Below are positions 8,271-42,114 of a stretch of DNA of 64,000 bases, one piece after another (the first letter of the stretch is position 1; each line of letters opens with the position of its first letter). Source of the stretch: Takakia lepidozioides (taxonomy: Eukaryota > Plantae > Bryophyta); contig CM060731.1 of NCBI GenBank assembly GCA_030704615.1, positions 5,518,001 through 5,582,000 of the forward strand, read 5' to 3'. The translations under genes and the position numbers were made by a program. The notes below the pieces were generated by a model, which did not search any database, was not told the origin of the DNA, and was given only the letters and a program-made list of their open reading frames with translations.

Positions 8271-8297
8271 CACCTACTTCTAAAAAATGGTCTCTAT

Positions 8298-14611: not shown

Positions 14612-15555
14612 ATTTGTCTTCTGGACTTGTTTGGCGGGATCAGCACCGGATTGGCTGCCGTGCTACAGGCAGGTGTACGAGTTCGGCGTTACCTGTATGT
14701 GGAGAGGGATGAGACTGCACGACGCGTCTCACTGCGCCATGTTGCTCAGTTGGTACAGCAGTACCCTGCTTTGTTGCCAGTGTCTGCAGTTTGTGGATAC
14801 CAGCAAGCCTTGCCAGCAGACATTTCGTTACTGGGGGCGCCGGATTTGGAGCAGGTTGGCTCCATTGATCTGGTAGTGGCAGGTTGGCCCTGCCAAGGGC
14901 ATTCATCAGCCGGGCATGGCAATGGATTGCGAGACTCGAGGACGGGTCTGTTTTGGGAGATGGTGCGGATTTTGCGCCACTTGCAACTTCATCAAGCTGT
15001 ATCGCCAGCATACATCTTGGAGAATGTGCCACTGATGGGCGATTCTCGGGCCAGGGTGATGGCCAGTGTGCATCAAGTCTGGTCGTGGCTTGGGTCAGCA
15101 GTGCTGCTGGATGCAGCTGCAGTGGGATCACGGGCTCATCGTCCACGGCTATGGTGGACTAACTTGATGCCACCGCACTGCTCAAGCGTGCATTTGATGG
15201 GGTGCAGCGGCCAACACACCTCATAGTGGACAACATTTTGGACACAGGGAGGCAGTCTCAACGTGTGAGACACGATGACCGTTTGCCTTTGGCAGCGGTC
15301 AATAGGGTGGGTCAACCACGAGCAGCATTACCAACACTGCTCAACTTCCCAGGATCCCATGCTTTTTGGGATGGTGGACCTGGCTTCCTATGGGATGCTC
15401 AGTTGCAGCAGTTAGTGGAGCCTATTGCTGACGAGCGTGAGCGGGCAATGGGTTTTACCACTGGTACCACGGCGGTGTCGTCTCTTTCTGAGGCATCACG
15501 TCGTCAAGTGTTGGGGCAAGCAATGGATCTCAATTGCTTGACCTGGATTATCAAC
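14612..15555 (+). pseudogene. DNMT3-like C5 cytosine methyltransferase domain, copy B (one frameshift near 15175)
   Basis: ICLLDLFGGISTGL, YLYVE, DLVVAGWPCQG, GLFWEMVRIL, YILENV, DAAAVGSRAHRPRLWWTNL, ERERAMGF, RRQVLGQAM. Confidence 0.92.
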
Positions 15556-18500: not shown

Positions 18501-18846
18501 TTGTTCAAGAAAGTCATGCCCATGGCTTTTGAGAACCTTGCCATTGCACAACACCGTGATACGTTGAGGTATGCCACTATGTGGTGGAGGATATCGTCCT
18601 GGGGTTCGGAGGTTTAGCCCTGGTGACTATGTTTATTTGCAGCAGACTGCTCCTACGACTCTAGCTGTTACTACAGGGCGTGTTATTCTGAGGGTTCGAG
18701 AGGTGTTGCCCTCAGGGGTCCTGATCTTGGAGGGTCGGGATGGCATGACTTGGAAGGACCATGTGCGTAATTGTGCGCCATGTCACATTCCCAATGTCGA
18801 TGGCAGAGTTGACCCAAACTTGGTAGTGGTACCTGCAGGTTTGAGG

Positions 18847-18990
18847 TGCATGCTCTGTGGGTCTGCCAAAGGGGCAGCCACTATGCTGGTGTGTGATCAA
18901 TGCTGAAGGGGTTGGCATATGGGATGCTTGACACCACCTCTTGAGAAGGTTCCTGACGGAGATTGGTTGTGTCCACACTGCTTGGGATAG
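18847..18990 (+). pseudogene. PHD finger at the integrase C-terminus, copy B (internal TGA)
   Basis: CMLC...MLVCDQC*RGWHMGCLTPPLEKVPDGDWLCPHC, a C4-H-C3 pattern. Confidence 0.9.
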
Positions 18991-19094
18991 TGGCAGTGGA
19001 CATGACTGGAGGCAGCTAACAAGACATGGGAGGCCAATCTCATAGGAGTCAATACATGAGATCCCAAGCTCAAGTTCACAGGTTTCAAGACGGC

Positions 19095-19446
19095 TGTCAA
19101 GTTAAATAAGCACAGTGTGAAACTAGCTAGAATAAAGCTAGTTATTTGTATTTAACACTTGGATTTAGGTCAAGTGTTAAATCAGGTGTCAAGTTTAGTT
19201 TGACACCTGACCCGTCTTATCTTCACGAGAGCGGCAGTCGCGCAGCTCATCTCTCTCGAGTTGAGCCTGCGCGACCGAGCTCCTGCATGCGTTTAGATCT
19301 GAGTGTACTCATGATGGGAGTGTAGGTTGTTGTGGGGTGGAGTCCCCATAGCTTGGGGTGCCCCTGGCTCGACTACTATTTCAAAGAGTGATGGTTTTGG
19401 TTTTCATGTTTTGTGTCAACAGTGTGTTCTTAGCTTTGTTCTATCA
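19095..19446 (+). repeat. LTR-like segment (3' LTR of B, possibly shared as the 5' LTR of C)
   Basis: Nearly identical to 30667-31020. Follows pol in both copies and ends CTATCA. Confidence 0.75.
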
Positions 19447-21393
19447 CTCGAGAGAGATGAGCTCTATCTAGTTTTCTAGTGCTAAGCTAGATATGATGTT
19501 TTTGTTTTTAAGCACTATTATAATGTAGCTTGGTCACGGGGAGCCTGCAGTTAGACTGGTTAGGTGTGCCGAGTGGAGCAAAACAGAAAGCTTGAGATGT
19601 TGCTACGATTTTTGTCAACCTGTGTATATATCTGAGAATGGGGATTAAGTGGCAGCAATAAAGAAAGAGGATATAATGAGGAAGCGGCCAATGGGGTGAC
19701 CACTGGAGCGGTGATTTCAGGGCAGGCTGTGGTAGCATTCTAGAGTTGTTCGATTAGTGATGCGGCTGCAACCAGCCACCCAGCAGCGACGCCGCATTGT
19801 TCTAGTCTTGGGGACGTAAAGAACAAATACTTCGTGGTGGATGCTCCGAAGGGCCATCTGGGAATTAGGGACTGCTATGCGGAGTTTGTGGACGAGAAGG
19901 GTATGTCTGTGCCTCTGAACAACGTGTACCTGCACCACTAGATCACGTACGAGTTCTCTGTACCGAGCAATGATGTAGACACCCATAAGGAGATGCTACT
20001 GAAATCTGTGGAGAAGAAGCACTCTTCGTCTCAATCCACCTTACACGCTGCCTCATTTGAAGGCTGCTGGCTCCGACCTGAAGCTCTCAGCTGGACAGAC
20101 GTTGATGCAGTACTTTGGTGTTGGTGCGGAGACCAGGCGCACCAAGTCAACTATCCCCGCGCCCTTTGCTGAAGAGACTGCAGCTCCTTCCCTGCTTGCT
20201 GAGGGCTACGAGCCGATATGGATTCTTAATGTCCACGGCCGTGACACACGGGGGGCCGTCAACAAACTAGGGTGCAGTGAGTGTCGGTTGCTTCTTTTCT
20301 ACTCTTCTCTGAAATCTTTTACACCTGTTTTGAGGAAGTTCTCTACAGGAAGACAATGTGTAAGGGCCTCGTCCCCACCAGTCACTAAATGCCTCACAAA
20401 TGGCTGCAGCCCACAAGGTTTACCTTAGCCCATAATCCCTATTGACCTGGCACAAAGCTATAGCGGACAACAATCCGTTGCAGGGAGCTGAGTGATAAAT
20501 TATGGGCTGACGTTGGCGTCATTTTAAAAGCATGAGATGGATTCCAGCACTGCTTCTCCAGCCCCTAGCTTATCATGTGCCGTGTTAACCCTTACAAAGG
20601 AGGGTAGAAAATAGAGAAGAAGCTAGGGGCCGGTGTACTGCCATAAGGTCGACAGTGCCTGAGCGATCCAGTTGTGTTTATTATTTTACCCGAATTAGAG
20701 GCTACAACAATTTGCAGTCAGCTACTGGATTTGGCGTGTGATCTTCACAATGTGACTGTGGACCGCAAAGGAGATCCTTTAGCAGAAAGTTACCTGGGAG
20801 GCCTTTAGTGCTGCACAGATGGGAAGCGCTGTGTTGTGAAGGAGGGCTTTGAAGGCGATGAGCTTGAGATGACCATCTACCTACAGTACACATGGGAATA
20901 TATTACCTGGGATGAGTGCGTTGAGCCCTGTCAAAGGTGGTCATCGGGTTCACCAAATATATCGAGTATATTGTCGAGGGATGTGGCAACACTGATCCCG
21001 CTTCTCCGGAATGTGTAGATACACGGGAGAGGATAATAGGTGCCCCTGTTTGAAGAGATTGGTGATTTAACCGAGGCAAATGGGAAGAAGGGAGCGGGCC
21101 TTCGGTTATGGCTGCCACCAGGAACTCCTGTTTGCAGGCATCTCTTTCACAAGCTAGTTGCCCCTTTTGAGATGATGTGATCTGCGCAGTGTTGCACTTG
21201 CATCCTTCAGCCCTGGATTGTACTATGTTTGGGGAAGATGGGCGTGTGATTTGCTACTCTCCTCCCATCTGTGGTACTGGACAGGCGGCTGACATCAGAT
21301 GTATCGCATCAGCGTACACCATTGCGTTGGTGAATCCAATTTGGTTGGTGCATTAATCGATGGGCACCTGGGAACGGTGACTATACTGTAGTG

Positions 21394-21412
21394 AAAAAAA
21401 AAAAAAAAAAAA
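21394..21412 (+). other. Poly(A) tract ending a degenerate coding-like region (~19650-21390)
   Basis: A19 run. The upstream sequence has broken, protein-like frames. Confidence 0.5.
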
Positions 21413-21639
21413 TGGGAACAGGGAACCAAAGGGAACCAATTGAAAATAGTTTTTCTTTGTATTTGTTTCTATTTAAGGTCATTTATTATAGTTACAGAGC
21501 CGCTTTGGCCATATCTTTGTCATATGAGCTCCGTTTGACACAGTTTTTGAGGGGATAGCTGCAGAAAGGGGAAATCTACCTATCTAAACCTGGTTTCTGT
21601 TTTGGGGACTCTGCTAAAAATCTATGGAATTTTTAGAGT

Positions 21640-22476
21640 GTGAGTGTGCCACGAAAGATCCACAATCCTGTTTCTAGAACTTGTGTTTGTCTATATGAGA
21701 GACAAATCTGTGGATGTACTCCTTGTATGGCTGGGGGAAATGAGGACGTAATTGAAGGGCATGTCTCTTCTCTTAGCCTGTGCGCACAAGGGGACAGGAT
21801 TTATGTTTCCCAAGGAACTCAGACTGATTTGAGTGGAGAACAGTTGGACGAGTTGATTGCATACTGGGAGTCAGGCATTAGCAGTAGACAACAGACTGCT
21901 GTAGTTGGCATTGAGGGCCTCAATATCGCCTTGGACAGTCAGAACTCTGTTGGAGCCAGCAGTTCTGCAGCTGTAGGTGAAATACCAAAGTGGGTGAAAG
22001 CTAGGCTTGGAACACAGCCAAAGACAGCCCTGGGGACCAAGGTGTTCAGCCACAAGGCCGTGGTGTACTGGAGCAGAGGAGCAGGAGCTACACAAGTTTG
22101 TGCAATCAGACATGGTTGCAGCCGGATACGCTCTGCACAGGGCAACCGCGAGCGGGGGTTCATCAGCAATGACATGTTTGTTGTGCGTGAAGGAGATGCA
22201 GTCATTCGCAATGAGGACACCCGCAACCGTCTCAAAGCTTTCGAGTTGAGAGACTATCATACCCTACCTTTGTTTTCTTTAGTATTCAGTGAGCGGGAGA
22301 TAGGGGAGTATTGCTTTGTCTCTACCTGGCAGAAAGAGGAGGAGGGTTGGTTAGAGCGAGCTACTGTAGCTTGGGACAAGGTTAGTGGCAGGTTTTTGGA
22401 CATAGATATACCTCCTACACCTTACCATCATGCAGAGCGAGGCACTTTGAGAGAAGTCTGGCAGTTGATAGCATAG
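21640..22476 (+). CDS. Unknown 278-aa ORF upstream of gag in copy C
   Basis: Uninterrupted, protein-like composition, same strand as gag. No family recognised. Confidence 0.4.
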   Translation: MSVPRKIHNPVSRTCVCLYERQICGCTPCMAGGNEDVIEGHVSSLSLCAQGDRIYVSQGTQTDLSGEQLDELIAYWESGISSRQQTAVVGIEGLNIALDSQNSVGASSSAAVGEIPKWVKARLGTQPKTALGTKVFSHKAVVYWSRGAGATQVCAIRHGCSRIRSAQGNRERGFISNDMFVVREGDAVIRNEDTRNRLKAFELRDYHTLPLFSLVFSEREIGEYCFVSTWQKEEEGWLERATVAWDKVSGRFLDIDIPPTPYHHAERGTLREVWQLIA

Positions 22477-23176
22477 ATCAGGATTAGATCTTGCTTGGTC
22501 GGGCTTCTATTCTTCCCCTCCATCTCTGTACTATTTTCATTACCTTGTACTTGTAGTTGCCAAAGCCTCTCTTGGTGGAGGCCAGTCAGTCCGGGGTTTT
22601 GGGCTGGGCTATTCTGCAGGATCAGCATTGCAGCTGGATTTTGGTGTGGGGGTGTTGATGTTTTGTTTCTTGTGTTTGGATCCCCCCCAACACCTGCATG
22701 CTTGACTGTGCGCCATGTTGGTTTTGTGTGGGCGCTTGCTTTCATAGGGATTAGGCCGGATTTGATCACCGGTCAATCCTAGAGTATGCTGTCGGTGGTG
22801 AGGCTGGAGTGATGACCAGCAAGACCACCAGTGTTTCTTCTATGGTGAGGCTGGGTTGATGACCAGCCAACCATAGGAGTTCTTGCGGTGGATGCAGGTG
22901 CAGGTGCCCTGAGCCATTGGGATATGACCCTTAAACTGCAACAGGTGCCCACCCGTGTCACTATTAGATTAGTACTAGAGCCTTATAGTGTCACGTGGAG
23001 GAGGTGCACATTGTGGGTGTCATTACGGAGTTACCCAAGGGTTTTGAGGGGAGTACGGCTACAGGCAGTAACAGTGAGAGTGGGTTCACAAGACGAGGTA
23101 TTCGGTTCAGACCACCTTCACCGCCACCCTCAATTACTGTAGAGTCAGACACAGACTGGAGGCTTCATCAACAGGT

Positions 23177-26100
23177 GTGCACTTTCATTCGCCATTGTTG
23201 TGGGACGACATGGAGGAGATGTATGGAGCTACCAAGGGGCCTCGTAGGTACTCTGGAGCTGTGGGCACAATCGAGTTGGATGACTTTATCCAGGAGTTCG
23301 ACAGCTGGTATGATTTGCAGCAGATGCGCAATCCACAGCTATTCACCCCATTCATGGCGTGGAAGGGACTGTTCCAGCATTTGGAAGGCCCGCCTATGGA
23401 CGATTACCACGAGTTCAGGCGAGGACATGAAGCAGAGATTGAGGAGTGGAGGATGTATTGGTCACCTGACTACGTCTCCATTACTCGAGGCACGACGCGA
23501 CCAGTAGCTGCATCAATACCAATAGCTCCCACTGCCAGCACTAGTAGTGGAGCAAGTAGTGCTGGTACTTCTGCAGGTGGTACCAGTTCAAAAGGTGCTA
23601 CTACTCCTCCTGCCACGACTACAACACATGTGCCTAGATTCAACCCGGTGGTGGAGTTCTTCCAGGAGTTGCGGAGGAACTACCAAGGTGTACGGACAGA
23701 GAAGCTGCGAAGTTTGCAAGACTTCCAGCGCAAACCCAGTGAGAGCCTGCGAGAGGCATACACTCGTATGAGGCGCTTGATAAGTGTGACCCAAGGGGTT
23801 ACTAAAGCTCAGACAATCCAGTTTTGGTATGGAATTCTGGACAAGGAGCTCAAGAGAAGGGTGCGAGATGCAACCTTGTTACAAGCAGCCCAACCCACAT
23901 TAGCAGATGTGTTTCTGCTGGCTGAGCGGATTGAGCTCAACATGGTGGAGGAGCGAGTTGTCACCATTGGATTTGGCAAGGACATGCCTGCACAAGGCGC
24001 AGCTGCCAATCCACAGGCACAAGGTACTGCCCAGCAGCGTGGTCAGGGGGACAAGGTTTCCCAACCCAAGTTCCATGGAGCTTACAGGGGACCTCAGGTG
24101 CAGAGGCCCGTGGCGTCTTTTGCAGGCCAACAACAACCAGGGGTGATATGTTGGACATGTGGAGGACCCCATGTCAAGAGAGATTTCCCAGAGAATGGCA
24201 AAAGGCCGGCACAAGCACAGCTTGCACAGTTGCAGTGTGGGCATTGTGGCAAGTATGGGCATGGAGATGCCCAGTGTTATGACTTGCATCCTGAGTTGCG
24301 CCTAGGCCAGTTCCAAGGGAACAATGGTGGCCGGGGGCGAGGTGGACCAGCCCAGAGAGGACGAGGTGGTCGGGCACGAGGTGCAGGCCAAGAGCAAGCT
24401 CAACATGGCCAAGGGCGCGGAGGTCAGGGTGTTGATCAAGGCATGGCCAACCGGCTTCAGCAGCTAGAGCAGAGGCTCGCTGCCATGGCTATAGCTCAGG
24501 CGGTACCGGCTCCCAGGCGGGATGGTCCACCTCCTGTTCCTGAGGGAGGAGATATGGGAGGCATGGGATTCATGTGCGGAGCAGCACTACCACTAGAGCA
24601 GGTGGAGTCTGCTGCAGCCGTGACTCGAGGAGCAGCACGAGTTCCTGAGCCACGAGGTGCAGAGGTGGAGTTGGATCCACAACGTGGGGAGGCAAGCCGT
24701 CAGGCGAGGCTGCCTCAGTCATTCACCTTGGCGGAGACAGTGTTAACGCCATCCATGGCACCTAGTTCTCGCCCGACTGTTATTGAGGCGGAGGTTTCTA
24801 TGTCATTGGGGAGAGCTACACGTGCAGCACTGACACATGCTACCAAGGCTAGTGCAGCCGGTGTGTTATTGGGGGCAGCCACCTCTGTGTGTCAAGCCCC
24901 ACTGTTCTCGGCAACCATGATTGCGACGCCGGGGGTAAGACCAGCTGCAGTGTTCAGACTAGCAGCAACACTCTGTGAGAGTGGGGAGGTCACTTCATCT
25001 TCTGCGGAGTTAGTGGAAGGTGTAGTGGCAGAGGGATCCTCGGATTTGAGGGTCAAGACTGCCACGGCTGCGCCCTGGCAAGCTGCAGCTGCCAGGTTGA
25101 CGGAGCTGCCAGCTAGGCCAGCCTTTGAGCGCGCCATGGTGACACCTGGAGTTCTCTTGTTAGACAACCAGGATGGCATTTTCTCTTTGAGTGGACCGGC
25201 AGGCAAGAAGTACCGACCACTGCGGGTCTTGTTGGACTCGGGAGCTCAGCCACTGATGTTGGGCAGAGCTGCTATTGCAGGTTTGGGCCTCATGGAGGCG
25301 GATATGGAGCCTTGTCCTTTCCAGATACAGACATCTCTGGGAGGATCAGAGCAGGCTCGGGGCATGACACGGCATCAGTTGGCCATTAGACTGCAGCCGG
25401 ATCATCCTATTGATGGCTCAGTGAATGCGAGCCAAGGCCATTGTGACAGACGCGGTCTCTTACGATGTCCTCGTTGGTGGGGCAGTGTTATACCCCATGG
25501 GCTACATCCTGGACTTTTGGGAGGAGTCAACATTCTACAGGCCTGGATGGCAGTCAGGGGATGGTCGTCATGCACAGCTCCCTGTGACATTCATTGGGGG
25601 TATTGCGGCTGCCCAACGGGGCAAGATGCCAACACTAGCCGCCTTTACAGCTGCAGTTAGTTGGCCTGGAGAGTTGCTGGAAGGCAATGCCCATGCAGAG
25701 GATGTGCCACCTCCAGCAGAGCAGGATGACATGCATGGTATGGCGGAGTTGCCTGCCATGGTTGCTCACACTCCATTGTGGGGTACGAGCAAGGATTTGC
25801 AGCAGGTTGCTGATCGACGGGTGCAACAAGCCTGGGTAAAGGCTTTTGTACCGTCAGGAGAGGAGGAGGGTGCAGGTATTACACCAGGACCACCTTAGTT
25901 GTCACCATTGGATACCACACCTATTGTGTGGCAGTATTCGGATGAAGGCATTTGCCTTCTGCACTTGTTTGGCAGGATCAGCACCGGATTGGCTGCCGTG
26001 CTACAGGCAGGTGTGCGGGTAAGGCGTTACCTGTATGTGGAGAGGGATGAGACTACACGACACGTCTCACTGCGCCATGTTGCTCAGTTGGTACAGCAGT

Positions 26101-27195
26101 ACCCTGCTTTGTTGCCAGTGTCTGCAGTTTGTGGATACCAACAAGCCTTGCCAGCAGACATTTCGTTACTGGGGGCGCCGGATTTGGAGCAGGTTGGCTC
26201 CATTGATCTGGTAGTGGCAGGTTGGCCCTGCCAAGGGCATTCATCAGCCGGGCATGGCAATGGATTGCGAGACTCGAGGACGGGTCTGTTTTGGGAGATG
26301 GTGCGGATTTTGCGCCACTTGCAACTTCATCAAGCTGTATCGCCAGCATACATCTTGGAGAATGTGCCACTGATGGGCGATTCTCGGGCCAGGGTGATGG
26401 CTAGTGTGCATCAAGTCTGGTCGTGGCTTGGGTCAGCAGTGCTGCTGGATGCAGCTGCAGTGGGATCACGGGCTCATCGTCCACGGCTATGGTGGACTAA
26501 CTTGATGCCACCCGCACTGCTCAAGCGTGCATTTGATGGGGTGCAGCGGCCAACACACCTCATAGTGGACAACATTTTGGACACAGGGAGGCAGTCTCAA
26601 CGTGTGAGACACGATGACCGTTTGCCTTTGGCAGTGGTCAATAGGGTGGGTCAACCACGAGCAGCATTACCAACACTGCTCAGCTTCCCAGGATCCCATG
26701 CTTTTCGGGATGGTGGACCTGGCCTCTTGTGGGATGCTCAGTTGCAACAGTTAGTGGAGCCTAATGCCGACGAGCGAGAGCGGGCTATGGGTTTTCACTG
26801 GGACCACGGCGGTGCCTTCTCTTTCTGAGGCATCACGTCGTCAGGTGTTGGGGCAAGCAATGGATCTCAATTGCTTGACCTGGATTATCAGCTTGGCTAT
26901 GGCTGAGCAACGTAGAGTGCGGAGTGCACTTCCCTTGACAGTCTCTCTGCCTACCGAGACGGTACAGGCAGCGAGTGGGGGCGAGCCGGTGAGGACCACG
27001 GGGTGTAGACATCCATGGCACACGTGGGAGGTGCTCGAGGTTCAGAGGGAGTTGGCAGCTAAGGCGGCTGTGATGGATGAGGTTGGGGATTCTTCCCGGG
27101 TTGAGGAGGTCCTCAAGGATGAGATGATGGGGCAGGATGAGGCCTTGTCATTGACTGAGCAAGCAGGGAGTACTGCTCAAGAGGTTGCAGCATAG
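23177..27195 (+). pseudogene. gag: Gag-protease-DNMT polyprotein ORF of copy C (frameshifts near 25423 and 26795, stop at 25896)
   Basis: Retrotransposon Gag motif FQRKPSESLREAYTRMRRL; zinc knuckles CWTCGGPHVKRD(F/C) and CGHCGKYGHGDAQC; RGG-rich tract; LLDSGA protease; DNMT 25950-26892; ends at TAG 27193-27195. Confidence 0.9.
25950..26892 (+). pseudogene. DNMT3-like methyltransferase domain, copy C (motif I altered to LHLFGRIST)
   Basis: GWPCQG, ILENV, HRPRLWWTNL, ERAMGF and RRQVLGQAM are retained. Confidence 0.9.
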
Positions 27196-30100
27196 CAACC
27201 ACGGGACGCGTCCTCTACCTCTAAGCCCACTGGACTTAAGGTTGCAGTTACGGAGGACAATTGGGAGCCTGACATTGGACCCATTGTCACCGGAGGAGAG
27301 AGACGACGTATACGGCGGTTCCTGAGGGCTTACAGGAATTGCTTTGCCTTCAGTTTGAAGGACTTGGGAGCACTGAAGGGTCAAGAGATCCGTATTGAGT
27401 TGGCCACTGACACGCCAATCTTTCGGAGACCCTATAGATACAGTGACATGGAGAGGTCTTTGATTCAGATGAGGACTCAAGATCTCTGGGAGGCAGGTTT
27501 GGTGGAGCTCTCTGGTGGAGAGTATGCTTCAGCCACAGTGATGCCAGCCAAGAAGGATGTCTATGGCAATTGGACGGAGAGACGTATGTGCGGTGATTAC
27601 CGGCCTGTAAATCGTCAGACCAAGTCCGATAGGTATGCCATGCCGACACCAGAGGAGATCTTTGATGCCATTGGGCATTCCAAGGTCTTTAGCACGTTGG
27701 ATTTACGATCCGGATATCACCAGTTGCGATCAAGGAGGCGGATAAGCAAAAGACGGCATTCTGGGGGATCAATGAGCACGGGAAGGATTGCCTATACCAG
27801 TGGCGGTTCTTACCATTTGGGCTTAAAAACGCTCCCGCTGAGTTTCAAAGAGTCATGGACAGGATTCTAGCAGGGGTGGAGTTTGCTCGGTGCTACATAG
27901 ATGACATCATCATCTTTAGTGCTACGGTGGAGGAGCATGAGAGACACCTTCAGGGGGTATTTGAGCGCTTGAGGACGCACGGATTGAAGTTACATCCGGG
28001 CAAGTGCAAGTTTTTCCACAACCAGATTGAGTATCTGGGTCACATGATATATCCTGGAGGATTGGGGGTACAGCAGACTAAGGTAGAGTCCATTGCACAG
28101 GTTCCACGCCCCACGGATGTGAGCCGAGTTCGAGCTTTCATGGGGTTAGCAAACTATTACAGACGGTTTGTTAAGGGATTTAGTGCCATTGCAAAGGCTC
28201 TAACCAAGCTGACCAAGGTGGACCAGGAGTGGCAGTGGGAAGATGAGCAAGAACAAGCTTTTCAAGAGCTCAAGGCGAGGTTGACCTCGGCGCCCATCTT
28301 GAGACGACCTATCAGGGGGCGTCCTTTTCAGCTGCATACAGATTGGAGCATGCTGGGGCTTGGAGCGGTGCTCACACAGGTGGATGATGAGGGAAGAAGT
28401 TCGTAGTGGCTTATGCTAGCCGCTCGAACAATGCTGCAGAGTCTAAGTATAGCTCATATGAGGGAGAATGCTTAGCTGCAGTGTGGGCCGTGGCACACTT
28501 CAGGTGCTATCTATACGACAATCTCTTCACCCTTGTCACGGATCACCAACCACTCAAGTGGTTGATGGAGTCAGACAAGCTTACGGGGAAGCTTGCACGG
28601 TGGGCACTCATCCTTCAAGAGTATGACTTTCAGGTGGTGCATCGACCGGGTTTGGTCAATCGCAATGCAGATGGGTTGAGTCGCAATCCATGCACGAGCC
28701 AGCAGGATGACACTGGAGCTCGGTGGCATGGTGAGACGGACGAGGAGATGGTGCCCGGATGGCATGCATCTGCATTTCTGTGTATCTTGGCAGCGGAAGG
28801 CCAGGTTGGACCTGCAACAGGGATGACTGTAGATCAAGTGTCTGAGGACCCTGAGGCCAGCAATGAGCAAAGTGGCGCCAAAGATATACATGAGGATTCA
28901 GTTGTGTTGGACTACCTCCGCACTGGAGACACTGCAGCCACTGTGACTGCCAAGGAGAGGGATCGGATCCTACAACGAGCCAAGAGGTTCAAGTGGGAGG
29001 GGACACACCTGCTCCGAGTGTGGGAGGATGGTCGAGTGAGGATTGTGCCTCACCCAACACAGTGGGCACGGTTAGTGCGGCATGCCCACGAGGAGTTGGG
29101 GCATTTTGGGGTACGCACCCATAGCCTACTGCAGGGGCAGTATTGGTGGCGTGGTATGCACACAGAGGTGCAACAATTTGTGGCTAGGTGCATGGTGCAG
29201 GGTGCGTGCTTCATTCAACGCCCCTACTCCACAATTGCACCCTCTTCCGATCATGGGATTGGGCTACAGGTGGAGTCTTGACTTCGCAGGGCCGTTGCCA
29301 CTGACCATGCGTCACAACTAGTACGTGTTGGTGATGGTGGAGCACTTCTCCAAATGGATTGAGTTGGTTCCATTGCCTGATAAGGCTAGTGAGGGAGCTG
29401 CGTATGCATTCTTGGATTGTGTGCTTAGCCGATTCGGTGCTCCAGCTGAGGTACTCACGGACCAAGGGAGAGAGTTCTTGGGGGAGTTTCAGGCTTTGTG
29501 TGACAAGGCCTTGATAGACCACCGCACCACTTCTCGGGATCATCCTGAGGCCGATGGCTTGGCAGAGAGAGTTGTTCAGACAGTAAAGAGGGGTTTGCGC
29601 AAGTATGGCTTGCAGAAGGGACACCTAGGAGATTGGGACCTTCAGTTACCCTGGTTAGCCATGGGCTATAGGTTCAGCAATCAAACATCACTTGCCTCTT
29701 TCTCACCATACTTTCTTCTCTTTGGCCGAGAGCCGGATTTGCCTACATCCATTCGCAGAGAAGCTGCTACAGTTCTTAATCTTGACGATCCGGACGTGTG
29801 GGCACGTGCATGTGAGCAGCGTGCAGAGTTGTTCAAGAAAGTCATGCCCATGGCTTTCGAGAACCTTGTCATTGCACAACACCGTGATACGTTGAGGTAT
29901 GCTACCATACGTGGTGGGGGCTATCGTCCTGGGGTTCGGAGATTCAACCCTGGTGACTATGTCTATCTGCAGCAGACTGCTCCTACGACCCTGGATGTGA
30001 CTGCAGGACGTGTTATTTTGAGGGTTCGAGAGGTCTTGCCCTCAGGCGTCTTGGTCTTGGAAGGTCGGGATGGCATAACTTGGAAGGACATGTGCGTAAT

Positions 30101-30319
30101 TGTGCGCCATGTCACCTTCCGAATGTCGATGGCAGGATTGACCCAAACCTGGCAGTGGTATCTGCAGGTTTGAGGTGCACGTTGTGTGGGTCTGCTAAAG
30201 GGGCAGCCACCATGCTGGTGTGTGATCGATGCTCTAGAGGTTGGCATATGGGATGCTTGACTCCACCTCTTGAGATGGTTCCGGATGGGGAGTGGTTATG
30301 TCCACATTGCATTGGATAG
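27196..30319 (+). pseudogene. pol: RT-RNase H-integrase-PHD ORF of copy C (several 1-2 nt frameshifts, one stop)
   Basis: RMCGDYR, YIDDII, LHTDWS/TDHQPL/ADGLSR, HEELGH, SLDFAG/TDQG/AERVV, intact PHD 30176-30316. Confidence 0.93.
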
Positions 30320-30579
30320 TGGGAGTGGATACAACCATGGAAGGCTAACAAGAAACGCAAGGCCCAGCTACTAGGAGACCTTGAACACACGAGGTCCTGA
30401 CTCAAGTTCACAGATTGCAAGACGGCGACTAACGATGGGGCTACTCTTGTACCCGGCCTCTTGGTCTATAGAGTTTGAGTGCAATATGGACAGTGATAGA
30501 GGACTTAATACGGCTGTGGCTATTACATCTTGTAGCTATCTGGAGTTAGAGGGACCTATCCACCAGCTAGGGGGGCAAT

Positions 30580-31020
30580 TGTGGCAGACTACTTTATTGT
30601 GCATGTATGTGTGGTGTGGTTTGGACAGCGATGTAGTTGTGTAGCGATACGTATGCGCACGACGGCTGTCAAGTTAAATAAACACAGTGTGAAACTAGCT
30701 AGAATAAAGCTAGTTATTTGTATTTAACACTTGGATTTAGGTCTAGTGTTAAATCAGGTGTCAAGTTTAGTTTGACACTTGACCCGTCTTATCTTCACGA
30801 GAGCGGCAGTCGCGCAGCTCATCTCTCTCGAGTTGAGCCTGCGCGACCGAGCTCCTGCATGCGTTTAGATCTGAGTGTACTCATGATGGAAGTGTAGGTT
30901 GTTGTGGGGTGGAGTCCCCATAGCTTGGGGTGCCCCTGGCTCGACTACTATTTTCAAAGAGTGATGGTTTTGGTTTTCATGTTTTGTGTCAACAGTGTGT
31001 TCTTAGCCTTGTTCTATCCA
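30580..31020 (+). repeat. 3' LTR of copy C
   Basis: Starts TG after the purine tract and ends CTATCCA. The segment 30667-31020 matches 19095-19446. Confidence 0.7.
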
Positions 31021-31021
31021 T

Positions 31022-31465
31022 TGTGGCAGACTACTTTATTGTGCATGTATGTGTGGTGTGGTTTGGACAGCGATGTAGTTGTGTAGCAATATGTATGCGC
31101 ACGACACGGCGACTAACGATGGGGAAACTCTTGCACCCGGCCTCTTGATCTATCGAGTTTGAGTGTAGTAGGGATAGTGGTGGAGGACTTAGTGAGACTA
31201 TGGTCACTATCACATCTTGTGGCTACCTGGACTTAGAGGGACCTAAGCACCAGCTAGGGGGGCGATTGTGTGGACTAGTGACTGACATAGTGGGCAGCAT
31301 AGTGGCAGCATAGTGGCAGCCTAGTGACTGACTAGTTGTAGCCTAGTGGTTGGACTAGTGGCTGGACTAGTGGTGGACTAGTGGTATACTAGTGTGTGGT
31401 GTGCACATGTGTTGTGTGGTTTTGGACAGCGATGTAGTTGTGTAGCGATATGTATGCGCATGACA
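31022..31465 (+). repeat. Rearranged tandem duplicate of LTR start, 3' UTR and PPT, with a CTAGTG-based microsatellite-like expansion
   Basis: 31022-31106 repeats 30580-30663; 31107-31266 repeats 30423-30579; 31267-31465 is a variant LTR start. Confidence 0.75.
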
Positions 31466-32759: not shown

Positions 32760-33640
32760 CTACAAAATTACATCTGATGCGATTCCCATTTTGATGATGT
32801 CAACATGGACTTGCTTGCCCTTTGTCAATGCTCCTACACTGGCACAGACCATGAGAATACACATGAATATGAACCTGTCCGGATTCAAACCATTCTGTTG
32901 CATTTGTTCCAATAATGCTAGGGTCTCCCACCACACCTATGCCGAGATATCCTGTGATTATTGCAGTCCATTTACCTCTCATTTACCCAGTTTGTCAATA
33001 AACACTTATGTGCATTATTTGCGCTCCACATTCAGCATTGCATGTCGACAAGACAATGCTCCAAACAACGTCTCTTGCAATTTCAACTTTGATGATGCCA
33101 GCATGTACCTGCTTGCCCTTCTCGAGGGATCCTAGACTTTCACACGAATTGAGAACACAAATGAGTGTGACGCTGTCTGGTGGCCTTTGTTCATGAAGTT
33201 TCAAAGACTCCTCAGCCATCTTTCTATGGTACATCCTGCCACCAACATACTCTCTTTGATATATCCCATTGACATGTTTTCTCAAACACCTGTCGTTCAT
33301 CTACCATGCTCCCGCATAGAGTTCAGAAGGGTGTCAACCATAAAGATGGTTGGCTTGAATTTATTTCGGATTGTGTGTGTGTTCACCTGCATTTCCTCTG
33401 CCAGGGCTTCCGTCTTGATGCACCTCTGTAAGAGACAGACGGAGATGCCTGACAACATTGTTAATCCAGAACGTGCGGCACCTCCTTCAGTCTTCCCTCA
33501 GTGATCCCCGAGATCATGAGACATAAGCTTATCACTCTGTTCGTCCCCTGTCCAAAGTGGTGGGGAACAGTGCCACCAGTCTGATGCCCAACTTGAATAA
33601 TATCACTGTTCCCCTCCAAGCTTCATCAGCACCTGAGCCT
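32760..33640 (-). pseudogene. Truncated, degenerate PLS-class PPR paralog
   Basis: [31 protein letters not shown]; CASVGALTKGKQVH; N-terminal VGHQTG shared with the neighbouring genes; stops and frameshifts. Confidence 0.85.
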
Positions 33641-33927: not shown

Positions 33928-36552
33928 TCACCCACAAGAACAGACCCCATCTTCAAAGTGGTGAAAGCGGTGGGCATCCCGTACAACTATTGCTCGCCCA
34001 ACAATTTTTGAGATGAACTTGGTGGCATTGTGGCAGTCACCACACACCCTAAGGTTTTTAATGATGCGGATAGGCGATCCAGAGGGTGTGCTGATGAGCC
34101 CAAAAGCAATGGCCAGCCTCTCACTGTGGTGGCAAAGGGAAAATTCCTTTTGTTCCTCCTCCAAGTCCTCCAATGCAAAGCGCATGTCAGGCACATACCC
34201 AGCGTCCTTCATCAGCACAGACAATCTCGTCAGCTCAGCATGGATTCCCTCAATTTGTGGATGTGACTTGTCCTCTACAACAAATGCATGCATTTGGCTG
34301 TTGACCGCAATATAGCTGCACCCTGGCTTCTTTCTGACACCTCTGTCCTCCATTAACCTTCTCACCTTGGCTTTATCATCCCACCTGCCAGCTGCAGCAT
34401 AGATGTTTGATAGTAGCACATAAGCTGCAGCATCCTGTGGGTCCCACTTGAGAACATATTTTGCAGCACGTTCTGCTACCTCCACATCTCTATGAATTCT
34501 ACAGGCACCAAGCAAAGCCCCCCACACTGCACCATGTGGTTCAATTGGCATTTTCTTGATGAAGTCCTCTGCCTCATCCAATCGCCCCGCACGACCAAGA
34601 AGGTCCACCATGCAGCCAAAATGCTCTACTGTAGGCGTGAGGCCATGATCTTGACTCATGGAATCGAAGTACTCACGTCCTTCATTCACTAGGCCTACAT
34701 GGCTGCATGCAGAGATAAGCGAAATGAAGGTGATATCATCTGGCCTCAAGCCTTCCTGATGCATTTGTCCAAATAGTTGAAGGGCCTCCCTACCACACCC
34801 ATGCTGAGAATATCCTGCTATCATTGCGTTCCATGTGACCACATCTCTTCTGGGCATTTTGTCAAACACTTCATGCGCATCCTTTAGGCTCCCGCATTTT
34901 GCATACATGTCGACAAGGCTATTCTCTAGATTGATATGTGTCCCAAATCCAATTTTAATAATGTCAGCATGAGCCTGCTTGCCCTTTTCCAGGGCTCCTA
35001 TTCTGGCACAGGCATTGAGGATGCCAATGAACGTAACTCTGTTGGGTGTCACCCTTTCCCGTTGCATTTGCTCGTAGAGCTCAAGAGCCTTTTCACCATG
35101 CTGATGCTGAGCATATCCTGCAATCATTGCATTCCATGAGACCACATCTCGTTGAGCCATTTTGTCAAACACTTGACGTGCATCTCCAATGCTTCTGCAC
35201 TTGGCATACATGTCAAGAAGGGTCGTCTCCAAATTAATAGATGATGAAATTCCAGCTTTGATGATGTCAGCGTGGACCTGATTGCCTTTCTCCAGGGATC
35301 CAAGGCTGGCACATGCATTTAAAATGCAAATGAATGTGACCTTGTCAGGGGTCACCCTTTCTCTTAGCATTTGCTCATACATTTTGAAAGCCTCCTCACC
35401 ATGCCCATTCTGAGCATATCCTGCCATTATTGCACTCCATGAGACCACATCTCGTTTAGCCATTTTGTCGAACACCTGGCGTGCATCCTTTAGGCTCCCA
35501 CATTTTGCATACATGTCAACAAGGGTATTCTCCAGTTGAATGTTCAATGGAATTCCACCTTTAATAATGTCAGCATGGACTCTCTTGCCATTGTCCAGGG
35601 CTCCTACGCTGGCACATGCATTGAGAACGCAAATGAATGTGACACGGTCAGGCGTCACCCTTTCTTGTTGCATTTTCTCATAGATTAGTAGAGCCTCTTC
35701 ACCATCTCCATGCTGAGCATATCCAGCAATTATTGCATTCCATGAGACAACATCTCGGTTAGGCATGTTGTTGAACACTTGACGTGCATTTTGAATGCTC
35801 CCACATTTGGCATACATGTCCATGAGGGTATTCTCTAAATTAATATATGGTGCAATTCCAGCTTTGATGATGTCAGCATGAACCCGCTGGCCCTTTTGCA
35901 GGTCTCCTAAACTGGCACATGCATTGAGAATGCAAATAAATGTGACCCTATCAGGCATCACCCCTTCCTTTTGCATTTGCTCATAGATTTTATGAGATTC
36001 TTCCGCATGCCCATGCTTGGCATATCCAGCCATCATCGTTGTCCATGTGAATATATCTCGCTGAGACATTTCCTCAAACACATGTTGTGCATCCACCATG
36101 CTTCCACATTTGGCATACATGTTGAGAAGGTTGTTGACTACAAAGATGGTTGGCTTGAATCCAGTTTGCAGAATGTGGGCATGAACCTGCTTTCCCTCTC
36201 CCAGGGCTTTCATGTTGATGCACCCCTGCAAGAGCCAGACATACATATCAGAGTCCGCCTGAATGCCTCCTTGGTCCAAAGAATGCAGCGCCTCCTTCAG
36301 TCTTCCCTTTTCAAAAAGTGACCTCACAGTCCCAGGAGGGCTGGACATAACTTTAATTACTTCCTCTCTTGGCCCTCGTTTCAAGTTGATTGCAATAGTA
36401 GAGGTGCTAATCCAGCGGCCAGTCTGATGTCCAACAAACGTGTGTCCCTGATGCAACCCTGCCATCCTGAATAACTCTGAATTGCAAGAGACAATTTTGG
36501 GTTCAGAACATCTCAAAAGCTTGAATATCACCTCAAAGCAAGACCTCTTCAT
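33928..36552 (-). CDS. PLS-class PPR protein with E1-E2-DYW domain (organellar C-to-U editing factor) lacking the last three residues; alternative start 36465
   Basis: Intronless 883-aa frame; five MYAKC-containing PLS units; PG box KKPGCSYI; HSERLA and CGDCH deaminase motifs; ends [11 protein letters not shown]-stop. Confidence 0.95.
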
Positions 36553-37727
36553 GATGACCAGGTTGTAGTGCAGTTGCAACTGATTTCATTTCTTCTCTTG
36601 GAGCTCCATGCAGCATATCAAACTTAGGACCATCACCAGATTGTGCCAACCTTCAGTCGTAGTGACAGGCTCTGCTTTCACACAATGCGGGTTTGATCAA
36701 CTCTCCAGCCACAGAGCCTCCTTTCTACACTTATGTTGGAAGCCCGGATATATTGAGGTCTTCTGTGAAAACCACAGATGCAGCTGAGCAGCTAAAGGTT
36801 AAACCACAGCCTCGTACACATGAGGCTACAAGCACAAAAGCGCCAAAAAAGCTGTGAATGCATTATTTGAGCATGCAATTTCAACTTGGATGCAAGTGTT
36901 GATGATCATGGTGATCCAAGATAAGGAACACTACAGTAGGATTATTGCCAAAGATCATCATTGACACTATTCTAAGCAACTAAGATCACAGTTTAATCTC
37001 CGAGAAGACACCATGCTAGATTGAGTCAGAGAAACCTGAATGTCCTTTCCATCCTCTAGACCTGAAAAATAATAGGATGTAACGCAGTCAGCCTCACCTC
37101 GAACCAATTGGACCAATGTGAAGGATTTGACAGGAATTCCTCATAAAGCCGTTCTATATTCATCGCTTGGCCTGCATGCAGGTACCTCTTGAACATAAGA
37201 TGCACCATAACCAGAGCTTTATTGAGGAAGCCTTCTGCCACATTCAAGCAGAGAAAAGATGAAGGCGAGGTAATGGTAACAGTTGGCTCAAATGGACGAG
37301 ACAAGGTCATCGACGTCTTCAAGTTTGTTGAGTCTGTCCCTTGGAAGAACAGCGGACCTGTCAAACAGCCCCGGCCTTGGACGGATGAATTCATTACAGG
37401 TAGAAGTCCTCCAGAATTCAGATCATGAGATGGCAGCCAAGATTGATAGGACATGCAGAAAATGTGGCTCGAAGTCTGCACAAATCCACGCTGAGATTGT
37501 TCAGAATCTTTACTATATATAAGGGCCACCTCGTCAGGAGAAGACTGATGTCACAACTCAGTAGGCTGCCCACCTCTGTACACTGAGCTACTCCAGCTGA
37601 GGAGAGGGCGTGATGAGAATAATTTCTCATAATTCACCGTCCTTAGCTCCCACGCAGGACGCAGATGGTCAGATCACCCTCGCTAGAGTTTTCTTCCTCC
37701 ATGTCAATCTTTGGGTGACGAAGACGC

Positions 37728-37742: not shown

Positions 37743-39795
37743 ACTGCCAGACGAATAGTCTTGTCAGCGTACGGTCGAACGCTCAAATCCACATGTGCAA
37801 ATTGTCATCAATCCAAGCATACTCGGATCAGAAACAATCTCCTGCTGAATTGGCTCACACTGACGGTTTCAAGTGCAGAGGAAGTCTTGTCAGAACTCTA
37901 GGCTCTCTTTGGGTAGGACACAGGGGCTGGAATATGTATACGGAGAGAGAGATAAGTAGAGTAAGAGTTGAACGATGGAAGTGTGTGTAGCATATCTGCG
38001 CTAATTGGGTAGCCCACGTTGTTGAGAGATGAGGTTCAAATCGAGAGCAAGTTTTGTGCGGTTTTTTACTTCAAATCGGGAGAAAGCGTTCTCAGACTTT
38101 TCGGTCCAAGTTGAGAAGCTGTTACAGACTTTTGGGCTTGATTTTGGGAACTGCCTCGTAAGATTTTTGGGTTAAAGTAGAGGGTGTGTCTCTGTGAATT
38201 TTCGTCCCTTGCAAGGACACTGGCATTGGTAAGACCACTATATTTGTAAAAGGACATTTGACCATATGACGTGAACAGGGTATAAGAGTCGGTAGGAGCT
38301 GGAGGCTATGATATGCAAGGTGCATAATCTCGCTCGTCTCATGTCACTCGTGCTACCAGTCTGCCAGTATGTAAATCGTTAAGTTTCTTTGTGCTGTTTC
38401 TTTTAAATTGGAAATCTGTTCGGATTCCTTGCATTGCCCACACTTTGTAGCTGAGCTGCACTATAGTATCCCTGGTATCTTGTATTTTTATTGCGTTGAT
38501 CCAGATTAAGACCAAGGGCAAAGGAGGATGTTATGTACTGAGGTCTTGGGACCTGGGCAAAGGCACAGAAGAAAGGATACTCAAAGTATGTAGAGAGGTG
38601 CAGGTGTTCCCAGCTGTAAGGGAGGGCACGAGACTAAGACACTTGAGAACATTTTGTAGAGCATTTTCAAGTGCCTGGACAACGACCCTTGGTACTCATC
38701 CTTTGTTTCTATTTTCCTTCCTCCCCCACCCTGGACTTCTTTCTTTCATTGACGTCACAAAATTCTTTCTTCGTTCTCTCTGTTGCTCTACTTACAGACA
38801 CATCTGCAGTAAGTGACATGTCCAAGCAATGGGCATGATGGTGTTGTGGTCCTTCTGGAGCAGTGGCACTGCAATCCAACTCGCAGTCACACTGGTGGAT
38901 TGAAAATGGCTAACAGACAAAGAAAGGAGGAAAGTTTTGTAGTCTCCAGAGAGAGAGGTTAAATTGGGCAAAACTACAGTAGCACTCCTCAATAAAATTT
39001 GGGCAGAAAATTGAATTGTGGCCATACATCATCCTCATTGAATTGCCAGCTATGGGAAACAAATGCGGCGCCTTGAGCATCCATTGATCACTTGGAAAAG
39101 ACTTTTCAATCATTACAATGGAGTAGAGTGACACTTATTGGGAAAGTACATTCACATGTCGAAACCATAATTCATGGAAGAAATATGGCTTGAAGTTATT
39201 TGCAAACTAGTTAAAGGTCTTACTTTTAATGTTGTACTTGCATGCAGTCAAAGCATTAAGAATAGAATGCGTTTGGCAAGAGTTCATTTCAGATCAGTGG
39301 TGGGCCAACAGTTTTAACCAGGTATAACTATCCTAAATGCTGCTATTTCGTAAATTGAATCATGATTTCAGTTGGGTAGATGTACTGGTGAAACTGGTTG
39401 TTCAATGTTGTGTGCCCGGTGTTTTGGAAGACACTTGGTAGGCTTTGGTGTCGTAACCTGGTCTGTCTGTGATGATCATTGTAGTAGAGTTCCTTGAATG
39501 GCTACGTTTGTTGTGTTCTCACAGAAGGAGACAAAATTCCCAAGCTTCAAACATAAGCGTATGAAAAAGGCATGGCAGTCAAATCCACTTTTGGTGAAGT
39601 CAGAGGTGCCCTCTATGACACAAGGTCGAGCACAATATGGCGATGATCAGATCTGGACGTGCAGCACGGACATCCAGGCAAAGAATCCAATCCACAGGTA
39701 TTGTGTTGTGGATAATGATTCAAAATTTAAATTGCTAAAGTCTTCAAAGTAGATGGCTGCAGATTCTTTTGCGACTCAGTGGAAAGTCCGTCCCC

Positions 39796-42114
39796 ATGAG
39801 AAGTTACTATCGTCAAGTGTCTAGGAGCTTTGAAGTGTTCTCCATCAACATTTGTAAAAGGAGTTTTAAGCTATGCAGGATGGCACGACTGAATCAGGCC
39901 CACTTGTGTGTTGGACGTCAGACTGGGTGTCGGGGTAGCACCACCACTACTTTGAAAAGAGGACCACAAGAGGGACCCAACAAGCCTGTGTATGCCAATC
40001 AAGGGGATGTGAGGACACTGTGTAAGGAGGGAAGACTAAAAGATGTACTGCAAATTTTGGACCATGGAGACATTCAGGCAGACTCCAAAACATATGTATG
40101 TATCTTGCAGGGGTGCATCAAGATGAAAGCCCTTGCAGAGGGAAAGCAGGTACATGCCCACATTATTCGCACTGAATTCAAACCAGACATCTTTGTAGCC
40201 AACACCCTAGTCAATATGTATGCCAAGTGCAGGAGCATGGTGGATGCACAACAAGTCTTTGAGCAAATGCCTCATCGAAACATATTCACCTGGACTGTGA
40301 TGATGGCAGGATATGCCAAGAATGGGCATGCCGAGCAGGCTATTCAAATCTATGAGCAAATGCAAGGCGAGGGGGTGTTGCCTGACAAAGTTGCCTACAC
40401 TACCATCCTCAACGCATGTGCCACCCTACGGAACCTGGAAAAGGGCAAGCAGGTCCATGCTGACATCATCAAAATTGGAGCTGCATCGGACGTTATTTTG
40501 GAGAATACTTTAGTTGACATGTATGCCAAATGCAAGAGTGTAAAGGATGCATATGAAGTGTTTGAAAAAATGGCAAAACGAGATGTGGTATCTTGGAGTG
40601 CAATGATTGCAGGTTATGCTCAGTATGGGCACGGTGAAGTCGCTCTCAAGTGTTATGAGCAAATGCAATGTGAAGGAGTGATCCCCAACAGGGTCACATT
40701 TATTTGCACCCTCAATGCCTGTGCCAGCCTTGGAGCCCTGGAAAAAGTCCAGAGGGTCCATGCAGACATCGTCAAAGCTGGAGTCCTCCCATATATTAAT
40801 TTGGAGAACAATCTTGTTGACACATATGCCAGATGTGGGAGTGTAGAGGATGCACGTCAAGTGTTTGACAAAATGGCAGAACGAGATGTGGTCTCGTGGA
40901 ATGTGATGATTGCAGGATATGCTCAGCATGGGCATGGTGAAGAGGCTTTCAAAATCTATGAACAAATGCAACGGGAAGAGGTGATGCCCGACGAGGTCAC
41001 ATTTATTTGTGCTCTGAATGCGTGTGCCAGCCTAGCAGCCCTGGAGAAGGGCAAGCAGGTTCATGCTGACATTGTAAAAGCTGGAATTGTGTCATATATT
41101 ATCTTGGAGACAAGCCTTGTTGATATGTATGCCAAATGTGGGAGTGTGGAGGATGCACGCCAAGTGTTCGACAAAATGGATACACGGGATGTGGTTTCAT
41201 GGAATGCGATGATGGCAGGGTATGCTCAGCATGGGTGTGGTACAGAGGCACTTCAACAATTTGAACTTATGCAACAGGAAGGCTTCAAGCCAGATGGTAT
41301 CACCTTCATTTCTCTTATCTCTGCATGCAGTCATGTCGGCCTAGTTGATGAGGGCTGTCACTTCTTCAATTCCATGACTCCAGTTCATGGCATCACACCT
41401 ACAATGGAGCATTTTGGCTGCATGGTGGATCTTCTTGGCCGAGCAGGACAATTGGCAGAGGCAGAGGACTTCATCAGCAAAATGGCACTTGATCCAGATG
41501 CCTCGGTGTGGGGCGCCTTGCTTGGTGCCTGCAGAACTCATGGCGATGTGAAGGCAGCCAAACGGGCTGTAAAAGGCATTCTTAAGTGCGACCCACAGAA
41601 CACTTCTGCTTATGTGCTGCTATCAAATATCTATGCTGCAGCTGGCAGATGGGACGAGAAAGCAAAGGTCAGAAAATTGATGGAGGACAGAGGTGTGAGA
41701 AAGGAGCCAGGGCACAGCTCCATCGAGGTCAACAACCAGGTACATTTGTTCATTGTTGAAGACAAATCACATCCACAGATCAGAGAAATCCATGTCAAGC
41801 TGAAGAGGTTGTCTGAACCAATGAAGGAGGCCGGGTATGTACCTGACACTCGCTTTGTATTGCATGATGTCGAAGAGGAGCAAAGGGAATTTTCTCTTGG
41901 CCACCACAGTGAGAAACTGGCCATTGCCTTTGGGCTCATAAGCACACCCCCTGGGACACGTATTTGCGTCATCAAGAACCTTAGAGTCTGTGGTGATTGC
42001 CACACCGCAACCAAGTTTATCTCAAAGATTTTTGGGCGAGCAATAGTCATACGGGATGCCAACCGCTTTCACCACTTTCGAGATGGGTTTTGTTCTTGTG
42101 GGGATTATTGGTGA
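39796..42114 (+). CDS. PLS-class PPR-DYW protein (organellar C-to-U editing factor), intact; alternative start 39880
   Basis: Intronless 781-aa frame; four PLS units; [21 protein letters not shown]; ends CSCGDYW. Confidence 0.97.

Follow-up and report, generated by a model that had tools for sequence, protein, structure and literature searches.

The Ty3/gypsy elements in the window (the whole 64,000-nucleotide stretch of Takakia lepidozioides DNA analysed here) belong to a DNMT3-bearing family whose integrase gene ends in a PHD finger, and we hold with moderate confidence that this finger likely anchors the integration complex on nucleosomes via the unmodified N-terminus of histone H3 (A1-R2-T3). 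Fusion of integrase and PHD is the usual state across a large family of green plants, ranging from green algae to liverworts, and judged from the sequences a role in integration is the likeliest reading of the finger.

The finger of copy C and the element that carries it

The finger of copy C follows the pattern CTLC-x11-CDRC-x4-H-x2-C-x14-CPHC, with LTPPLEMVPDGEW, at positions 30176-30310, and agrees letter for letter with the spacing and linker that an earlier note on this DNA had described. The Pfam search proposed there recovers the PHD family PF00628 at E 5.5e-12 (46 bits, cut-off 24), and the finger has the C4-H-C3 zinc ligands together with the late tryptophan of that profile. At E ≤ 0.001 it matches 81 PDB sequences, and the best among the 60 of them listed are the fingers of CHD4, PHF12, ATXR5, KDM5 PHD1, PHF21A, DPF3, BAZ2 and UHRF1. 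Between the integrase barrel and the PHD lies an A-P-C-H-L motif (30101-30115) whose cysteine and histidine vary no more than the zinc ligands do, being present in 104 of 104 relatives, and possibly form an extra metal site.

The earlier description of the finger as intact in copy C holds for the motif and fails for the frame that joins it to the integrase. Because one base is missing at ~30088, the PHD is out of frame with the integrase, and the integrase frame 29322-30173 stops ahead of it. The integrase is also broken near 29197 and by a stop within its core, at 29319-29321, and further frame breaks lie at ~27726 and ~28397; copy C is dead. Contigs of the same species carry the extra base at ~30088 in four runs (23, 23, 10 and 1 contigs, three of the runs being one sample), and the break in copy C is therefore not the state of the family; one run, possibly of RNA, includes a 1,205-base contig spanning the integrase end and the PHD, which is not taken as a sign of expression.

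None of the window copies A-D has an unbroken integrase-PHD frame, and each is broken at a different place. Copy C is inserted in the 3′ end of copy B, 100 bases behind the PHD of B, with a 4-base target duplication. In copy B the integrase C-terminal domain and the PHD are joined in frame, but the frame is broken near 18583, and the single stop reported earlier for its finger (18847-18990) is found at 18904-18906. Copy A has its frame break near 9082 and copy D near 55045, and their fingers are truncated as described, both ending after '..MLVC', at 8447 and 54410. Over 13,094 columns A and D differ by 0 mismatches and 12 gap bases, and A breaks off at an N gap. The two probably represent a single locus that was assembled twice and are therefore not independent copies, and since they differ by gaps only, some of the one-base breaks may be assembly indel errors. 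The corresponding stretches of the window, 1-13090 and 45966-59051, form a 13-kb near-perfect duplicate. The sequence that cuts the PHD of A and D (1-8446 and 45966-54409) is strongly C-skewed and high in repeats, holds several frames of 150-370 residues without a Pfam match, and is perhaps another element. Elsewhere in the window lie two intronless PPR-E-DYW frames in opposite orientation, at 33928-36585 (-) and 39739-42114 (+), and near 32760-33500 the remains of another PPR sequence. The DYW region of one neighbouring PPR gene matches proteins of ginkgo, conifers, lycophytes, mosses and liverworts to a similar degree (mostly 62-71%), a pattern that points to no group narrower than land plants. 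In the Takakia host the element family is highly repetitive; 42,152 contigs of one run align to a 4.1-kb stretch, a figure that is not a copy number.

Table 1. Copies in the window and parts of the element, in positions of the whole stretch
Feature	Position	Strand	Remarks
Copy A	8447-13090	-	Cut mid-PHD by unrelated sequence
Copy B, 5′ part	13591-19094	+	Starts at N gap; PHD 18847-18981, stop 18904-18906; 3′ remainder 31107-31465
Whole copy C	19095-31106	+	12,012 bases; inserted in copy B; flanking 4-base duplication CGGC (19091-19094, 31107-31110)
5′ repeat A1	19095-19445	+	Starts TGTCA; 98.3% identity with A2
Candidate self-priming site	19446-19463	+	18 bases, exact complement of 19244-19261 within A1
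Gag and aspartic protease (DSGA motif) frame	23078-25660	+	Weak Pfam gag match, E 0.0072; translation; ORF1 of relative L001
DNMT3-like cytosine methyltransferase domain	25899-26828	+	Between protease and RT; PF00145, E 1.9e-13; PC, ENV and RxR motifs
Reverse transcriptase and RNase H, copy C	27196-28624	+	Frame breaks ~27726, ~28397
Integrase, copy C	29048-30088	+	H2C2 finger, DDE core, long helix, beta-barrel C-terminal domain; fold from relative P0001
Linker with A-P-C-H-L motif, copy C	30089-30175	+	End of SH3-like barrel; possible extra metal site
PHD finger C4-H-C3, copy C	30176-30310	+	Stop 30317-30319; integrase in another frame; Pfam and PDB matches
G6 end of polypurine tract	30570-30575	+	Directly before repeat B1
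3′ repeats	30578-31106	+	B1 30578-30664, 2-base spacer, A2 30667-31019, B2 31020-31106 (ends GACA)
Copy D	54410-61937	-	Probably the locus of A (13 kb with 0 mismatches), same cut

The Ty3/gypsy element comprises, in this order, gag, protease, cytosine methyltransferase, reverse transcriptase (RT), RNase H, integrase and PHD. Its repeats are split and direct, with A1 at the 5′ end and, behind the polypurine tract, B1, two bases, A2 and B2, and the same layout accompanies Gypsy domains in six full-length loci (L013, L037, L045, L055, L060, L074). Target duplications in these six, judged by eye, are exact over four bases in three, have one mismatch in two and are missing in one. The B1/A2 joint reads GACA-NN-TGTCA or a transition variant in 21 of the 22 joints inspected, with GC as the spacer in eight, some of the loci being the same insertion. 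A complement to A1 directly follows A1 over 18 bases in copy C and 8-17 bases in the six loci, counted without a shuffle control, and suggests self-priming of the Tf1 type, as reported in the text of the REXdb survey for Tcn1 (PMC6317226) and probable in this family too. Within copy C, the 3.1 kb at 19464-22552 are absent from copy D, include a poly-A run near 21400 and could be an insertion; a 279-residue frame in it (21637-22473) is without a match in Pfam and has only weak ones in the atlas.

Standard reverse transcription would place B-A at each end, and a two-LTR circle cut at the internal palindrome would give the integrated A...B-A-B form. As a tentative picture of the whole, which we regard as possible, this would be an unclassified green-plant Gypsy whose DDE integrase cuts the two-LTR circle at the LTR palindrome TGACA-GC-TGTCA, leaving A...B-A-B ends with ordinary 4-base duplications, and which combines a PHD histone tether of K4 sensitivity retuned in land plants with a DNMT3 of its own that marks the circle. 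The duplications CGGC, AAGG, ATGT and ATAA share no sequence preference and are uninformative on chromatin. An assignment to DIRS/Ngaro was rejected, as a tyrosine recombinase would be expected there and the family has an rve DDE integrase, a Ty3-like fold and 4-base duplications. Phygy of REXdb is described in the survey supplement with an NCGN target duplication, a tRNA-Trp primer site and no extra domain (PMC6317226), and was rejected on the strength of the four duplications above, the self-complementary primer site and the two extra domains, a comparison made by description, the trees including no Phygy sequence.

Integrase and finger in the relatives

The integrase tail of copy A served as the query of a first search, of which the best 120 of 131 matches were examined. 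In 94 of the 95 relatives with room for a finger, that is an integrase core plus at least 195 residues behind the core, the PHD stands behind the integrase, at a distance of 132-162 residues from the core with a single exception. Because this query held half a PHD, a PHD-free RT-RH-IN query was also used; of its best 150 matches, two lack an integrase match and 81 family-like representatives score at least 200 on the family profile, a cut-off of our own choosing. Among these 81, the PHD follows the integrase in 61 of the 65 with room, whereas it does so in 0 of the 67 lower-scoring rows. The earlier note had allowed that the finger might prove to be out of frame with the integrase in intact copies, and in both sets of relatives it is in frame. 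Of the four exceptions, two have a PHD before the integrase, one has two integrase stretches and a later PHD, and the fourth has a cluster-mate that carries a weak PHD. The finger is also present in 64 of 66 metagenome loci with room among the best 80 of 546 confirmed loci, which belong mostly to two subfamilies and so are not independent. Named members come from Marchantia, Calypogeia, Coleochaete, Klebsormidium, Pleodorina, Hariotina and Cymbomonas, and no relatives of the element were found among viral contigs.

Each of the eight zinc ligands is kept in 102-104 of 104 relatives, and the catalytic D, D and E of the integrase in 94 of 94. Over the PHD, copies C and B give a dN/dS of 0.11, and comparison with 11 related loci gives 0.22-0.31, so that the finger is under purifying selection; the integrase core gives 0.06-0.09, near saturation, the PHD being the faster-evolving of the two. 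The AlphaFold model of relative P0001 comprises the integrase core, a long helix, a beta-barrel (473-523) and a PHD of pLDDT ~90, and its best fold matches are the foamy virus and Ty3 intasomes.

Three side observations concern individual relatives. The Marchantia protein Mp_7g09570 (P0002), labelled 'PHD-type domain-containing protein', is a deleted family member, an example of how members can be mistaken for host genes. P0137 is filed under an uncultured cyanobacterium and is likely plant DNA in the bin. The long tails behind the PHD in P0065, P0117, P0114 and P0169 weakly match Tudor (PF21743) and a D12-type adenine methylase, below the cut-off.

The earlier note had placed the PHD where chromoviral integrases have a chromodomain and spoke of one instead of the other. 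This stands for the position behind the integrase and falls for a replacement within the chromoviruses. In three RT-RH-IN trees, rooted on one fish element, with references recognised by a Pfam chromodomain rather than by clade name and with the rows lacking a complete RT-RH-IN set (2, 1 and 14) left out, chromodomain-bearing elements of plants, algae and a fungus fall on a separate side (support 98; 100/97; 100/98), and the family forms a clade of its own (100; 80/93; 100/99). No chromodomain is matched in P0001-P0187 by a profile that detects 68 of 120 control proteins, none appears in 24 full Pfam scans, and none occurs in the 81 family-like representatives among the best 150 matches of the PHD-free query. 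A chromodomain swap within the sampled chromoviruses was rejected on these grounds, and since the family stands outside the chromodomain side of the trees, its PHD likely arose separately. Chromoviruses (Tcn1, Chlamyvir, Galadriel, Tekay, Reina, CRM) resemble the family in carrying a domain of the histone-reader type behind the integrase C-terminal barrel, as the text of the survey describes them (PMC6317226); they differ in the reader fold and the side of the tree, and the split repeats and the DNMT are features of the family.

In the closest sister group, joined to the family with 98/98 support, the PHD is placed between RNase H and integrase, and the sister-lineage proteins scanned contain no cytosine DNMT. 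The PHD of the sister lineage thus immediately precedes the integrase, and the finger keeps to the integrase whichever side it occupies. Proteins of the sister type with the PHD before the integrase are P0432, P0442, P0435, P0448, P0431, P0443, P0428 and P0430; P0432 and P0442 also have a Dam-type adenine methylase ahead of the RT, and P0430 a deoxynucleoside kinase after RNase H. REM1 of Chlamydomonas reportedly has its PHD in a separate antisense frame, along with a chromodomain.

Putative histone-binding surface and proposed role of the finger

The tryptophan of the methyl-K4 cage lies two residues before the histidine of a PHD. At this position glycine stands in 97 and tryptophan in 0 of 104 relatives, with glycine also in copy C, and the family is therefore without a methyl-K4 cage; the reading of methylated K4, which the earlier note had named as frequent among PHD fingers, is thus not supported here. 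An aromatic cage is described for methyl-K4-reading PHDs (10.1101/715474; PMC5415848), its tryptophan being conserved in those that read H3K4me3 (PMC5415848). In KDM5A PHD1, A1 of H3 is held by L309, P331, G333 and W335, and R2 by D312 (10.1101/715474), which correspond to L43, P65, G67, W69 and D46 of the window segment. Among the 104 relatives, L43 is kept in 65 (with I, V or M in 37 more), P65 in 102, G67 in 85, W69 in 86 (with F in the other 18) and D46 in 98. Copy C accordingly has the features of PHDs for unmodified H3, namely the A1 pocket (L, P-x-G-x-W) and the R2-type aspartate after the third cysteine. Known readers of unmodified H3 (KDM5A/B PHD1, BAZ2A/B, PHF21A, UHRF1, ATXR5, CHD4) share the A1 pocket, the R2 aspartate and the absence of the cage tryptophan, and are among the best PDB matches.

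The contact for K4 itself varies within the family. The acidic wall facing K4 is E1689 in BAZ2A (PMC5415848) and E305/D306 in KDM5A, and unlike KDM5A and BAZ2 the finger of copy C is without an acidic K4 pocket, having Ala-Ala at this position in an approximate loop alignment. In the same approximate alignment, the position is Ala or Gly in 18 of 23 short-tailed relatives and Glu or Asp in 56 of 81 long-tailed ones, and the mean net charge of the finger is +0.9 in the short-tailed (n=23) against -4.3 in the long-tailed relatives (n=81). Judged by these residues, histone binding may be weak or gone in the short-tailed branch. A predicted complex of the window PHD with a 30-residue H3 tail, run without an alignment, scored 0.30, the mark being 0.34, and counts neither for nor against binding. 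On the side of histones, 46 contigs of a viral collection (L081-L126) match the H3 N-terminal motif; in several the encoded H3 has a tail that is altered or lengthened, and L099, L114 and L117 carry the H3 tail alone, fused to other sequence.

For the finger as histone tether, we propose that the PHD would stay on the mature integrase, where it would bind H3 and bias the landing sites of new copies. In the land-plant/streptophyte branch, which includes copy C, the grip on H3 would be weaker and mostly insensitive to K4 methylation, since the K4-reading acidic patch is lost, and algal members, which keep the patch, would favour K4 without methylation. The DNMT would have a task of its own, probably on the cDNA of the element itself, as has been proposed for such elements.

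Some PHDs have non-histone targets, and the finger could instead be a structural or non-histone module of the integrase that contacts DNA, a host protein or another subunit of the multimer, perhaps sharing a metal with the linker Cys-His, its histone binding being vestigial at least in land plants. The loss of the acidic patch and the neutral charge in the short-tailed branch fit such a module, as does the linker C-H pair, invariant in 104 of 104, and the unusual ends of the family might need an extra integrase function; yet the A1 pocket and the R2 aspartate, surface positions known for H3 binding, are kept in both branches, and we consider this reading unlikely, if deserving of weight. A role after or apart from integration, in which the PHD recruits or blocks chromatin factors so that copies stay transcribed or harm to the host is limited, has been proposed for transposon PHDs in general (PMC9940879; PMC8557442). 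That the PHD stays joined to the integrase in two sister lineages fits integration better, however, and in the short-tailed branch the protein has no effector domain after the finger, which makes such a role very unlikely here. That the finger is a captured piece of a host gene or a chance motif without function for the element is hardly credible: all window copies are broken, as this would allow, but its position and ligands are conserved from green algae to land plants and its dN/dS is well below 1.

The methyltransferase, published precedents and significance

The methyltransferase of the family is by sequence DNMT3-like. In copy B its catalytic motifs are present and DNMT3A/B rank first among the PDB matches, DNMT3A being the first of all at E 1.7e-9. 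In the best preserved relative, L001, ORF1 encodes gag, protease and DNMT in 1,369 residues and ends with the DNMT, and the PHD ends ORF2, ~1,000 residues past the DNMT. The DNMT has two slots among the 81 family-like representatives, standing before the RT in 8 and between RNase H and integrase in 49 (57 in total). It is upstream of the RT in 33 of 34 metagenome loci with room, among the best 80 of 546, and in many long-tailed members it directly precedes the integrase in one chain.

In the ADD module of DNMT3, a PHD-like fold whose ligands are all cysteines is combined with a GATA-like finger, and the module adjoins the methyltransferase within one chain. The analogy with this module was rejected, as the finger of the family is of the C4-H-C3 type, with histidine as zinc ligand 5 in 104 of 104 relatives, and the DNMT and PHD of L001 lie in separate frames; no ADD entries occur among the 60 of 81 PDB matches listed. 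The earlier statement that the element carries both a chromatin reader and a DNA-methylation writer is right in that both domains are encoded, and goes too far where it implies a coupling like that of ADD, given the separate frames and the moving DNMT. A working pair, in which the PHD directs the DNMT towards chromatin unmethylated at H3K4 or links methylation with the site of insertion, would agree with the co-occurrence of the domains in the representatives and metagenome loci counted above, and an uncleaved DNMT-integrase-PHD product, and with it coupling, is possible where the DNMT directly precedes the integrase. We nevertheless regard the pair as quite unlikely, because the DNMT is in the other frame or in a moving slot while the PHD position is fixed, and because the sister lineage has the PHD without a cytosine DNMT in the proteins scanned, two of its members having a Dam adenine methylase. 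Three further proteins, P0075, P0100 and P0106, have the PHD and 460-620 residues ahead of the RT without a DNMT match, and a Klebsormidium DNMT was inactive in yeast, a result that its authors call inconclusive (PMC5890265). By its placement, the finger tracks the integrase and not the methyltransferase.

Gypsy elements with a DNMT3, Gypsy PHDs and the targeting idea are already published. KnitGypsy-Dnmt3 is reported for the Klebsormidium nitens lineage (PMC5890265), with Gypsy domains and DIRS-like repeats according to a figure legend (PMC5890265, Fig. 4c), and shares with the window element a Ty3/gypsy Pol with a DNMT3-like domain and DIRS-like or split direct repeats. The words 'PHD' and 'chromodomain' have 0 occurrences in the text of that paper and in three supplementary text files, and a figure may show one. 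The K. nitens protein P0091, with its DNMT before the RT, falls inside the family in all three trees (a 100/99 clade in the third) and is taken from its species and domains to be KnitGypsy-Dnmt3; both K. nitens proteins that were found stop or change frame ahead of the place of the PHD. Compared with KnitGypsy-Dnmt3, the window family extends to land plants and chlorophytes and has a second DNMT position.

Retrotransposon PHDs are described as widespread and likened to chromodomains (PMC6673714), and a targeting role for those of Gypsy elements has been proposed (PMC9940879; PMC6673714). In Chlamydomonas, Gypsy-7a_cRei has a PHD in its polyprotein, for which targeted insertion was suggested; its intergenic insertions are in 2.6-fold excess, for which the authors also name selection as possible (PMC9940879). 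The legend gives its order as RT, RH, PHD and INT and lists no DNMT (PMC9940879), so that its PHD lies before the integrase, unlike that of the window family, which lies behind; the order matches the sister lineage, which, going by this legend, may be of the Gypsy-7a_cRei type. CopiaMBD of arthropods likewise carries a chromatin reader thought to bias integration, with methyl-CpG binding shown (PMC6673714), and differs from the window element as a Copia with a methyl-CpG reader. The text of the REXdb survey is without a PHD (PMC6317226). The literature covered, which excludes figures and most subscription papers, holds no account of an integrase-terminal PHD in a DNMT-bearing Gypsy of land plants.

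Whether such readers steer insertion has been raised, and not settled, in print. The family offers a natural series for testing this, with acidic algal and neutral land-plant fingers, PHDs before or behind the integrase, and members with or without a DNMT. If the proposed role is true, a second Gypsy lineage has gained a histone reader on its integrase independently of the chromoviruses, and this reader is predicted to recognise the bare tip of H3 rather than a methyl mark.
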